Below, one piece after another: positions 2,967 to 38,673 of a DNA stretch of 64,000 nucleotides. The stretch's first letter is position 1; every line of letters begins with the position of its first letter. Below the pieces are notes generated by a model, which had not been told where the DNA came from, ran no database searches, and saw only the letters and a list, made by a program, of their open reading frames with translations. Position numbers and translations under genes: made by a program. Source of the DNA: Escherichia coli (lineage in GTDB: Bacteria > Pseudomonadota > Gammaproteobacteria > Enterobacterales > Enterobacteriaceae); the NCBI RefSeq assembly GCF_013315695.1, contig NZ_CP054353.1. One strand, 5' to 3'.

Positions 2967-3716
2967 ATGATTGAAATAGAATCACGCGAGCTGGCAGATA
3001 TTCCCGTTCTTCATGCTTATCCTGTCGGACAAAAAGATACCCCATTACCGTGCGTGATTTTTTATCACGGCTTTACTTCATCCAGTCTGGTGTATAGCTA
3101 TTTTGCCGTTGCGCTGGCGCAGGCTGGTTTGCGGGTGATCATGCCGGATGCGCCCGATCACGGTAGCCGTTTTAGTGGTGACGCAGCGCGGCGGTTAAAT
3201 CAATTCTGGCAAATCTTGCTACAAAGTATGCAGGAATTCACTACTTTACGTGCGGCAATAGCCGAAGAAAACTGGCTGCTTGATGACCGTCTGGCAGTCG
3301 GTGGCGCGTCGATGGGCGCGATGACGGCACTGGGAATTACCGCTCGCCACCCCACGGTGAAATGTACCGCCAGCATGATGGGATCGGGCTATTTTACATC
3401 GCTCGCCCGTTCACTGTTTCCACCGCTGATACCTGAAACGGCAGCACAGCAGAATGAATTCAATAACATTGTCGCGCCGCTGGCAGAGTGGGAAGCGACA
3501 AACCACCTGGAACAACTTGGGGACAGACCTCTACTGCTGTGGCATGGCCTCGACGATGACGTTGTGCCTGCCGATGAATCACTACGTTTGCAGCAGGCCT
3601 TAAGCGAGACGGGACGGGATAAACTGCTAACCTGTTCATGGCAGCCAGGCGTGCGTCACCGCATTACGCCTGAGGCGTTAGATGCTGCCGTGACATTTTT
3701 CCGCCAGCATCTTTAA
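2967..3716 (+). CDS. yjfP: YjfP esterase, alpha/beta hydrolase
   Basis: 249 aa; GGASMG nucleophile-elbow motif; position between bsmA and ulaR as in K-12. Confidence 0.85.
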
Positions 3717-4468: not shown

Positions 4469-4575
4469 GAGCTATTCCGATAAAATTTGATTTTTTTAGA
4501 TGATATTTGAAATAGCCAGGAAATACTACGCCGGATAGCGCGAACTTCTCCACGCTATCCGGTATAAACGATAGA

Positions 4576-5640
4576 TTACAGGAATGACTTGAATGGCAGA
4601 TCCGGTTCAATAGTGAAGCAATCATCGAAACCGCGCGGATAGTGGTACTCGAAGTTGTCTTTATCCAGCGGCCAGGTAAATTTGCCGCCCACCTGCCAGA
4701 TAAACGGCTTGAAGCCATACTTCAGACGATCTTTTTTCATCTCCCACAGCACGCGGATCTCTTGCGGATCGGCCTGGAAGTTTGACCAGATATCGTGGTG
4801 GAACGGGATAACCACTTTCGCATTCAGCGCTTCACCCATACGCAGCATATCGGCGCTGGTCATTTTGTCGGTAATACCGCGCGGGTTTTCGCCGTATGAA
4901 CCTAAAGCCACGTCGATCTGATGTTCGTTACCGTGCTTCGCATAATAGTTAGAGTAGTGGGAGTCGCCGCTGTGATACAGGGAGCCGCCAGGCGTTTTGA
5001 ACAGGTAGTTCACCGCGCGATCGTCCATGCCATCTGGCAGTACGCCAGCCGCTTTTTGATCGGCAGGCAGGGTGATCAGTGCAGTACGGTCGAAAGCATC
5101 AAACGCATGAATTTCAATGTCTTTCACTTTTACTACATCGCCCGGTTTGACCACGATGCAACGCTCTTTCGGTACGCCCCAGCCAATCCACAAATCCACA
5201 CAGGTTTTCGGTCCAATGAACGGTACGTCATCAGCACCGTTCTGCATCACAGCAGCAGCGACGTTGACGTCGATATGATCGTTGTGATCGTGAGTCGCCA
5301 GTACCGCGTCGACCTGGCGAATCGCAAACGGATCAAGAACAAACGGGGTGGTGCGCAGGTTTGGCTGCAGTTTTTTCACGCCAGCCATGCGCTGCATCTG
5401 GTGACCCTGTTTCATTAACGGGTTACCGTGACTTTGTTTGCCAGTGCCGCACCAGAAATCAACGCAAACGTTGGTGCCACCTTCCGATTTTAACCAGATC
5501 CCGGTGCAGCCAAGCCACCACATCGCAAATGTGCCAGGTGCGACCTGTTCTTGTTCAATTTCTTCATTCAACCAGCTACCCCACTCCGGGAAAGTGCTCA
5601 GGATCTAGGATTCACGGGTGATACTTTTCACTTTACTCAT
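4576..5640 (-). pseudogene. ulaG: ulaG (L-ascorbate-6-phosphate lactonase) with an in-frame TAG at codon 12
   Basis: Minus strand from ATG at 5638-5640 reads [34 protein letters not shown]...; the rest of the frame down to 4576 is intact and matches UlaG. The track ORF 4576..5571 is the TTG-initiated remainder. Confidence 0.75.
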
Positions 5641-7392
<1,752 letters not shown>

Positions 7393-30601: not shown

Positions 30602-36153
<5,552 letters not shown>

Positions 36154-36155
36154 CA

Positions 36156-36497
36156 ATGCGAATATTTGTCTACGGCAGTTTACGCCACAAACAAGGCAAC
36201 AGTCACTGGATGACCAATGCCCAGTTACTGGGCGATTTCAGTATCGATAACTACCAGTTGTATAGCCTGGGCCACTATCCAGGCGCAGTTCCGGGGAACG
36301 GAACGGTACACGGTGAAGTTTATCGTATTGACAACGCCACGCTGGCCGAACTTGATGCCTTGCGCACCAGGGGCGGTGAATACGCGCGCCAGTTGATTCA
36401 GACGCCGTACGGGAGTGCATGGATGTACGTTTATCAACGACCCGTCGATGGATTAAAGCTAATTGAAAGCGGCGACTGGTTAGACAGGGATAAGTAA
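36156..36497 (+). CDS. ytfP: YtfP, gamma-glutamylcyclotransferase-family protein
   Basis: 113 aa, MRIFVYGSLRHKQGNSHWM..., AIG2-like fold motif YGSL. Confidence 0.85.
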   Translation: MRIFVYGSLRHKQGNSHWMTNAQLLGDFSIDNYQLYSLGHYPGAVPGNGTVHGEVYRIDNATLAELDALRTRGGEYARQLIQTPYGSAWMYVYQRPVDGLKLIESGDWLDRDK

Positions 36498-36504
36498 TAA
36501 TAAA

Positions 36505-36534
36505 AGCACGCCACCTTCGGGTGGCGTTGTTTTA
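36505..36534 (+). terminator. Rho-independent terminator of tamAB-ytfP
   Basis: acgccaccttcgggtggcgt hairpin followed by tgtttta. Confidence 0.75.
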
Positions 36535-36876
36535 TGCGATGTATCTCGCGATTTTTTTTTGTAACTTTTCCATCTTTTGCTTTTCTCTCCGAGCCGCTTT
36601 CCATATCTGCAATCGCATAAAAAACTCTGCTGGCGTTCACAAATGTGCAGGGGTAAAACGGGGGCACGCTTTGAACGGTGAGTATGAGTGAGGTCGGCTA
36701 ACTTCCAGCAAGTGGCTATGAACAGCAAAATGGTGGTCGGGTTTGCTTGTTCTTACCGTTCAAGCCTTGCAACCGCTGAGAATAATGATGGTGGAATAGA
36801 GAGTTTATTTATCGCGGGCATAAAAAAACCCTTACTAACCGAAGCCCGGCGTTCAGGGTTATTGCGCTAGAAGAAC

Positions 36877-37407
36877 TTATTTATTCTTTGCGCGCTCGAA
36901 GGAAGCAACGATTTCAGCTTTAGCGGCTTCTGCGTTTTCCCAACCTTCAACTTTCACCCACTTGCCTTTTTCGAGGTCTTTGTAGTGCTCGAAGAAGTGA
37001 GCGATTTGCGCTTTCAGCAGTTCAGGCAGATCGTTTACGTCTTTAATGTGATCGTATTCTTTGCTCAGCTTGCTGTGCGGAACCGCAACCAGTTTCGCAT
37101 CTTCACCGGCTTCGTCGGTCATTTTCAGAACGCCAACCGGACGGCAACGGATCACAGAACCAGGCTGCAGCGGGTACGGAGTCGGGACCAGTACGTCAAC
37201 CGGGTCACCGTCCAGAGACAGGGTGTGGTTGATGTAACCGTAGTTGCACGGATAGAACATCGCGGTGGACATGAAGCGGTCAACGAACAGTGCGCCGCTC
37301 TCTTTGTCGATTTCGTATTTGATCGGATCTGCGTTAGCCGGGATCTCAATAACAACGTAGATGTCTTCCGGCAGATCTTTACCCGCAGGGACGTTGAGTA
37401 AGCTCAT
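36877..37407 (-). CDS. ppa: Inorganic pyrophosphatase
   Basis: 176 aa, [45 protein letters not shown]... Confidence 0.95.
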
Positions 37408-37716
37408 GTCTGTTTCCTTTAAAAATATGTGGCAAACAAGTGCCGAGTATTATAGCCAACTCGCGCCGAATGTCTTTGCTTGTTTTCGTCTTCATTTTCC
37501 TTTTTCGCCAGTTTTAAGACGGTATACAGAGCAGGAAAATCCATAACCGTAGCCGCATTTTTCATAGTGAGATGAAAGCGATTACAAACTTGTGATTAAC
37601 GTTTTATTTACTTTTTTGAAGTGTGATGTAACGCAATCCGTTACATAACGAATTGTCTATAGTTTTTTCGCGAACATCTTTTCACCAATAATAATTACCC
37701 CGACGAGGACAACCCT

Positions 37717-38673
37717 ATGTGGAAACGCTTACTTGTAGTCTCTGCAGTCTCGGCAGCCATGTCGTCTATGGCGTTGGCCGCTCCATTAACCGTAGGATTT
37801 TCGCAGGTCGGATCGGAATCCGGCTGGCGCGCCGCAGAAACCAATGTGGCGAAAAGTGAGGCCGAAAAACGCGGAATTACGTTGAAAATTGCCGATGGTC
37901 AGCAAAAGCAGGAAAACCAGATTAAAGCGGTACGTTCCTTCGTTGCACAAGGGGTGGATGCGATCTTTATCGCTCCAGTGGTTGCGACGGGTTGGGAACC
38001 GGTATTAAAAGAGGCGAAAGATGCCGAAATCCCGGTCTTCTTGCTCGACCGTTCCATCGATGTGAAAGACAAATCTCTCTATATGACCACCGTTACTGCC
38101 GACAACATCCTCGAAGGTAAGTTGATCGGTGACTGGCTGGTAAAAGAAGTGAATGGCAAACCATGCAACGTGGTGGAGCTGCAGGGCACCGTTGGGGCCA
38201 GCGTCGCCATTGACCGTAAGAAAGGCTTTGCCGAAGCCATTAAGAATGCGCCAAATATCAAAATTATCCGCTCGCAGTCAGGTGACTTCACCCGCAGTAA
38301 AGGCAAAGAAGTCATGGAGAGCTTTATCAAAGCGGAAAACAACGGCAAAAACATCTGCATGGTTTACGCCCATAACGACGACATGGTGATTGGTGCAATT
38401 CAGGCAATTAAAGAAGCGGGCCTGAAACCGGGCAAAGATATCCTCACGGGTTCCATTGACGGTGTACCGGACATCTACAAAGCGATGATGGATGGCGAAG
38501 CGAACGCCAGTGTTGAACTGACGCCGAACATGGCGGGACCCGCTTTCGATGCGCTGGAGAAATACAAAAAAGACGGCACCATGCCTGAAAAGCTGACGTT
38601 AACCAAATCCACCCTTTACCTGCCTGATACCGCAAAAGAAGAGTTAGAGAAGAAGAAAAATATGGGGTATTGA
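37717..38673 (+). CDS. ytfQ: YtfQ, periplasmic galactofuranose-binding protein of an ABC transporter
   Basis: 318 aa, signal peptide, periplasmic sugar-binding fold. Confidence 0.9.
   Translation: MWKRLLVVSAVSAAMSSMALAAPLTVGFSQVGSESGWRAAETNVAKSEAEKRGITLKIADGQQKQENQIKAVRSFVAQGVDAIFIAPVVATGWEPVLKEAKDAEIPVFLLDRSIDVKDKSLYMTTVTADNILEGKLIGDWLVKEVNGKPCNVVELQGTVGASVAIDRKKGFAEAIKNAPNIKIIRSQSGDFTRSKGKEVMESFIKAENNGKNICMVYAHNDDMVIGAIQAIKEAGLKPGKDILTGSIDGVPDIYKAMMDGEANASVELTPNMAGPAFDALEKYKKDGTMPEKLTLTKSTLYLPDTAKEELEKKKNMGY

Follow-up and report, generated by a model that had tools for sequence, protein, structure and literature searches.

A decayed chpB remnant in the short ytfP-ppa spacer of Escherichia coli, the probable scar of an old chpS-chpB deletion

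In Escherichia coli K-12, chpS and chpB, the type II toxin-antitoxin module also called chpBI-chpBK (MazEF/PemIK family), lie between ytfP and ppa. In the stretch of E. coli DNA considered here (64 kb in full, hereafter the window), ytfP on the plus strand and ppa on the minus strand converge on a gap of 379 bp (36498-36876). An initial annotation, comparing it with the arrangement in K-12, described this gap as free of the chpS-chpB pair and as encoding nothing that resembles either protein. The locus raises the question of whether the pair was lost here or was never present. The gene order is tamB (+), ytfP (+), the 379-bp spacer, ppa (-), and ytfQ (+, from 37717), and the surroundings of the spacer are made up as follows.

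32374-36153, plus strand: tamB (ytfN), a conserved upstream gene; ORF of 1259 aa, annotated as tamB in matching E. coli records.
36156-36497, plus strand: ytfP, gamma-glutamylcyclotransferase family, the left border of the spacer; ORF of 113 aa, identical to WP_001219160.1, which is annotated as ytfP.
36508-36535, plus strand: intrinsic terminator of ytfP, ACGCCACC-TTCG-GGTGGCGT followed by a T-run; terminator scan and fold.
About 36822-36860, minus strand: intrinsic terminator of ppa, an AACCCU...AGGGUU stem followed by U7; centroid fold.
36877-37407, minus strand: ppa, inorganic pyrophosphatase, the right border of the spacer; ORF of 176 aa, annotated as ppa.

The length given for the interval is confirmed by the ends of ytfP (36497) and ppa (36877, minus strand), and both terminators lie inside it, as had been proposed. 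The ytfP hairpin (36508-36527, ahead of its T-run) folds with -24.5 kcal/mol (z=-4.7) and recurs in all genera read, while the ppa terminator is identical in sequence in K-12 and has a similar counterpart in Citrobacter amalonaticus. A promoter scan of the 379-bp spacer returned no sigma-70-like promoter, and an Rfam 15 scan of 35500-38000 returned nothing at gathering score; its lone match, a sub-threshold S15-leader, lies within ppa and not in the spacer (16.8 bits, where the gathering score is 39.5). The 20 kb around the spacer are 100% identical to E. coli strains EcPF7 and KL53. In KL53, the locus tags skip from RS22715 (ytfP) to RS22725 (ppa), and annotation may have dropped a spacer feature, RS22720.

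A DH1 derivative of K-12 has a ytfP-ppa spacer of 886 bp with both chpS and chpB, so that the stated position of the pair is correct and the K-12 interval differs in length from the 379 bp found here. K-12 ChpS matches PF04014 (MazE/AbrB-type) and K-12 ChpB matches PF02452 (PemK/MazF). Intact chpS and chpB ORFs are absent from the 64-kb window, in agreement with the initial annotation, but its further claim that nothing in the interval resembles either protein fails, since positions 36670-36794 are homologous to chpB nt 19-145 with 92 of 127 positions identical (72%; E=6e-17, blastn within the window). Searched against 5,426 complete E. coli genomes (28 Gb), the same segment matches the annotated chpB in every chpSB-bearing strain (72.4%, E=2e-7). 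A tblastn search with ChpB recovers aa 15-42 (E=0.005), interrupted by an in-frame stop and a frameshift. Neither the frame-corrected translation of the relic nor a 60-aa ORF at 36688-36870 matches a Pfam family; evidence at the protein level is therefore weak, and the case stands on DNA homology. With this homology at the orthologous position, a broken frame, and substitutions that show no codon-position bias, the segment has the marks of a chpB pseudogene. PGAP places no annotation over it, and a literature search for a chpB remnant or pseudogene at ytfP-ppa found nothing specific. The reading of the interval in the initial annotation is thus partly supported. Between the two terminators, the spacer can be divided as follows.

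36536-36660, plus strand: remnant of the pre-chpS spacer, ending in GGGGTAAAACG just before the 5' junction; aligns with the K-12 ytfP-chpS spacer.
36661-36669, plus strand: 5' deletion junction with 9 nt of uncertain origin, GGGGCACGC; K-12 alignment, same in 11 relic alleles.
36670-36794, plus strand: chpB relic (codons 7-48), interrupted by in-frame stops and lacking 1 bp; blastn and tblastn.
36789-36799, plus strand: 3' deletion junction, TGGTGG microhomology joined to AATAG; alignments.

Compared with the K-12 module, the window retains the same site, the pre-chpS spacer, and a piece of chpB with its stop codon, but it lacks chpS, the operator and promoter, the chpB start codon, and the C-terminal two thirds of ChpB. 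Searches of the 64-kb window by blastn and tblastn gave no credible trace of chpS or ChpS. The operator palindrome GAGTTATACTTTGTATAACT upstream of chpS is conserved in all chpSB-bearing genera, and it has no match with three or fewer mismatches in the 64-kb window; in the K-12 alignment, the operator/promoter region falls in the part deleted from the window. There is no intact antitoxin ORF with a PF04014-type domain upstream of a toxin in the window, and no intact toxin ORF with PF02452, of which codons 7-48 alone remain, with stops and a frameshift. The relic cannot work as a chpSB toxin-antitoxin module. Judged from its sequence, it would have no coding function, and the strain should be devoid of ChpB and ChpS activity. 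A small protein from the spacer was also considered and rejected, as ORF lengths are not conserved among relic alleles.

The junctions are informative about how the pair was lost. In the K-12 alignment, the left flank agrees as far as GGGGTAAAACG (36650-36660) and agreement resumes at about 36816; the roughly 155 bp between them stand in for the chpS promoter, chpS, and chpB of K-12. The 5' junction marks the loss of the operator/promoter, of chpS in its entirety, and of the chpB start codon. Its breakpoint lacks base-level resolution, since 9-12 nt there are of uncertain origin; GGTAAA, as a microhomology that the upstream spacer would share with the chpB start ATGGTAAAG, is possibly behind this deletion. 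At the 3' junction, ATGGTGG runs straight into AATAG, with which chpB ends, stop codon included (K-12: GTGGTGGAATAA). The K-12 sequence has TGGTGG repeats at chpB nt 140-145 and 341-346, and the 201 bp between them (nt 146-346) are gone from the window. A decayed chpB piece of about 130 bp beside 125 bp of the chpSB upstream spacer points to a deletion scar, not a never-occupied site, and the presence of a broken chpB fragment in the gap argues that the pair was lost here. Both junctions are identical in all 11 relic alleles compared, which comprise the type strain of E. albertii, a strain with esiB, the two main E. coli haplotypes, and two genomes labelled "E. coli" that either belong to a cryptic clade or are mislabelled. 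This indicates that the scar arose once and is old. Later damage is allele-specific, the window type having a 1-bp deletion and the FDA1301 type an in-frame TAG.

The window carries the common chpSB-less allele, and this allele is very probably an old double-deletion scar of chpS-chpB that arose once and decayed neutrally. From the homology and the junctions we infer the following order of events. One deletion would have taken the autoregulated promoter/operator, the whole of chpS, and the start of chpB; since the promoter was lost along with the antitoxin, the toxin would have been silenced in the same step, and such joint removal of promoter and antitoxin is a plausible route to viable loss. 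A second deletion, of 201 bp between the TGGTGG repeats, would then have taken chpB nt 146-346, and the remaining 130 bp or so of chpB would have decayed neutrally, gaining stops, a frameshift, and GC-to-AT drift. The scar probably has a single origin that precedes the separation of the E. coli copies from that of E. albertii. Relic (about 43%) and intact chpSB (about 57%) now segregate in E. coli, with recombination in the conserved flanks presumably moving the scar between lineages.

Whether the remnant is truly neutral is the point on which the old-scar reading meets its best-surviving rival, in which selection keeps the relic and in particular the following predicted element.

36670-36766, plus strand: long imperfect hairpin derived from the Escherichia chpB mRNA (chpB nt 19-117); predicted fold.

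Intact Escherichia chpB mRNAs, that of K-12 among them (nt 19-117, locus 2373-2471), have a predicted long hairpin over codons 7-39 (-46 to -51 kcal/mol), which is absent in Lelliottia, Enterobacter, Kluyvera, and Pseudocitrobacter. The relic hairpin has the same topology as this ancestral structure, with about 30 bp (17 Watson-Crick and 11 G.U pairs) and -38.9 kcal/mol, compared with -47.9 kcal/mol for the intact Escherichia chpB mRNA. When the 24 substitutions and 2 deletions of the relic were placed at random on the ancestral sequence, the simulated decays folded with -26.8 +/- 3.7 kcal/mol, and only 0.45% were as stable as the observed allele; a second allele gives 0.2% and the E. albertii copy 11.8%. 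Apart from E. albertii, the hairpin is more stable than 99.5-99.8% of decays simulated with an equal set of substitutions, in a test that was devised after the fold was seen. Relative to the intact chpB ancestor, pair 28-106 changed from G.U to U-A through two transversions, and a cluster at nt 36-41, with its register shifted, contributes six pairs that the ancestor lacks. On the plus strand, each of the 11 non-Watson-Crick pairs is a G.U pair; the minus strand folds poorly. According to this model, the hairpin appears better retained than random decay predicts (p ~0.002-0.005), which pure neutrality does not explain.

A co-opted remnant of this kind could serve as an RNA 3' stabiliser or as a transcription insulator between the convergent ytfP and ppa; alternatively, the hairpin could date from a long orphan-chpS stage, when the antitoxin gene, still expressed, would have had a defunct chpB as its tail. 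However, the 11 relic alleles contain no compensatory pair and no covariation above that of shuffles, and the stability is lost in the E. albertii copy (p=0.12). The z-scores against shuffles reach no further than -2.1 to -2.6, with -0.8 in E. albertii, and the hairpin is as diverse as the flanks (about 3%). The spacer also lacks a promoter, the ytfP terminator lies upstream of the relic, and no meaningful Rfam match covers it. Co-option is consequently judged decidedly unlikely as an account of the locus, and the probability that the hairpin has a function is judged low.

The ytfP-ppa site in other genera bears on the possibility that the ancestral, empty spacer was kept here and that chpSB was inserted in K-12-like lineages alone. 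Most Enterobacteriaceae genera lack chpSB at ytfP-ppa, and no intact ORF of either gene exists here, with nothing resembling the pair among the ORFs seen in the initial annotation, all of which would suit a virgin site. However, the ytfP-chpS spacer has a constant length of 212-217 bp and a partly conserved sequence in every chpSB-bearing genus, while genera without chpSB have a ytfP-ppa interval of 100-170 bp that consists essentially of the two terminators and lacks the pre-chpS spacer. The 379-bp interval of the window exceeds such true empty sites and contains both the chpSB-associated upstream spacer and the chpB fragment at 36670-36794, and outgroups polarise the changes onto the relic branch, so that a never-occupied site is refuted by the chpB homology and retains next to no probability.

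The spacer behaves more widely as a cargo hotspot across Enterobacteriaceae, with an empty site of 100-170 bp in most genera and chpSB at the same offset in at least six. In Citrobacter youngae and Salmonella arizonae, the site holds a Hcp-domain (PF05638) fusion protein, followed in S. arizonae by a further small ORF; a methyl-accepting chemotaxis protein takes this place in Silvania, Enterobacter soli, and Pluralibacter, and E. cloacae and E. mori carry unknown small membrane ORFs. Independent fragments of the module also occur: in Citrobacter sedlakii, a spacer of 347 bp contains a C-terminal piece of ChpB (aa 63-107; locus 3430-3562), and in Enterobacter cloacae a ChpS fragment (aa 9-31; locus 5100-5168) adjoins ppa.

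The substitutions in the relic indicate when its decay began. At 21 sites within nt 19-145, all relics differ from an otherwise invariant Escherichia chpB; these changes are spread over codon positions 1, 2, and 3 as 8, 8, and 5, and at 20 of the 21 sites six outgroup genera support the intact state. GC-to-AT changes outnumber AT-to-GC changes by 10 to 3. Together, the codon-position, outgroup, and GC-to-AT patterns argue for decay after inactivation instead of the divergence of two working genes. The relic differs from Escherichia chpB at 34 of 125 positions and from the chpB of other genera at 51-64 of 125; being nearest to Escherichia chpB, it is best read as a local fossil. A foreign, non-Escherichia chpB as its source was rejected, because the relic shares Escherichia-specific states and other genera are further away.

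The two main E. coli relic haplotypes are about 8-10% apart. The E. albertii copy is 88% identical to the window in the relic, compared with 90.8% for the tamB 3' end, 95.6% for ytfP, and 95.5% for ppa, and this species-level divergence of the flanks makes a recent import of the relic from E. coli unlikely. The stem of the relic lineage amounts to 21 of 125 positions against 16 of 125 between the E. coli and E. albertii relics, or about 2.6 times the later divergence per lineage, in an incomplete sampling of Escherichia species that did not include E. fergusonii, E. marmotae, or the E. coli representative genome. These sequence comparisons suggest that the loss long predates the split of the E. 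coli and E. albertii copies. The divergence of 28% from chpB is large and would mean that the loss is very old and the two alleles coexisted for long, or else that clustered complex mutations took place (nt 36-41, 50-53), and the dating is rough, since each of these clusters may be a single complex event. Similarity in the left flank tracks lineage, not allele class; this points to a recombination mosaic, which also makes the dating rough. A trans-species haplotype, in which the left flank would track allele class, was rejected for the same pattern.

A recent loss of chpSB from a K-12-like allele, in this strain or its close relatives, would fit flanking genes that are 99-100% identical to K-12 and a 3'-junction microhomology typical of spontaneous deletions, but it is scarcely credible and is refuted by a relic just 72% identical to every extant Escherichia chpB and by the same double-deleted form in E. 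albertii and in 2,323 E. coli genomes, where it has two or more haplotypes that differ by about 8-10%.

Intact chpSB is found in 3,100 of the 5,426 complete E. coli genomes (57%) and the relic allele in 2,323 (43%), a class to which the esiB strains (188 of 5,426, 3.5%) are assigned from the totals and one esiB locus that was read; the relic without esiB accounts for about 39%. The two groups are essentially non-overlapping and sum to 5,423 of 5,426 genomes. As almost no genome has two such places, relic strains do not carry the pair at another site, which answers a further question attached to the initial annotation. The relic is present in C41(DE3) (BL21-type), ATCC 8739, E. coli C, and the type strain ATCC 11775. 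The esiB allele, which encodes a SEL1-repeat sIgA-binding protein (1.47 kb), has a 2,035-bp spacer, and in the locus read (L086), esiB lies just after the ytfP terminator with the relic downstream. The 379-bp spacer of the window contains no such ORF.

An earlier survey of 47 genomes gives the states of this locus as esiB in 15%, chpBS in 53%, and neither in 32% (Pastorello et al., 2013 mBio; PMC3735183). Within this three-state description, the window corresponds to the "neither" state. The presence/absence difference of chpSB is common and already published (PMC3735183). The third state is there termed "both absent", with no chpB remnant mentioned in the available text (PMC3735183), whereas the window holds the relic.

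The long persistence of both states invites an extension of the old-scar reading, in which the polymorphism is far older than E. coli. One double-deleted relic, common to E. albertii and persisting beside intact chpSB at intermediate frequency, would then suggest long-term balancing selection, such as a defence benefit against a carriage cost, with the hairpin possibly a selected RNA element, either left over from the orphan-chpS stage or acting now between ytfP and ppa. This combination is considered unlikely.

The decay of a chromosomal toxin-antitoxin module is a well-known kind of event, and an ordinary strain difference. Mine et al., in a 2009 paper in Genetics, reportedly described chromosomal ccdO157 of E. 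coli as an intergenic type II module that is intact or degraded and lost depending on the strain, and its decay is said to have been read as a lack of strong selection. The likeness to the ytfP-ppa locus lies in this intergenic chromosomal setting and in a survival that varies from strain to strain. The ccdO157 module belongs to the CcdAB family, however, occupies another site, and has reportedly undergone many independent inactivations, whereas the ytfP-ppa relic is MazEF-like and appears to stem from a single old double deletion that spans species.

What is new here is a small detail, an unannotated and apparently ancient chpB fossil at the short allele together with an unexpectedly well kept predicted hairpin inherited from the chpB mRNA. 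It bears on polarity, as chpSB was probably lost and not simply never gained, and surveys that score the pair as absent overlook the relic. About 43% of sequenced E. coli, BL21-type strains included, lack the ChpB endoribonuclease and its antitoxin, which calls for caution when toxin-antitoxin results are transferred from K-12, although the practical importance of the missing chpSB is little. The locus is a good case of a chromosomal toxin-antitoxin module in decay, with both states apparently long-lived.

Several variants add to the diversity of the spacer. At 36767-36820 (the relic 3' end and the spacer ahead of the ppa terminator), the two main relic haplotypes of E. coli disagree at about 11 of 54 positions, while the hairpin, left flank, and ppa terminator differ by about 3%; the excess could stem from local hypervariability or a recombination patch. 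In the chpSB-bearing E. coli N32, an IS4 is inserted between ytfP and chpS (locus 4491-5837). Finally, E. coli HH45 carries a mosaic allele (locus 1198-1709) with relic-type junctions but with chpB nt ~25-120 100% K-12-like, preceded by about 130 bp of odd, nearly T-free, C/G-rich sequence, and annotated by PGAP as a partial PemK/MazF pseudogene. Gene conversion of the relic with an intact allele could have produced this mosaic, or it could be an artefact of assembly.
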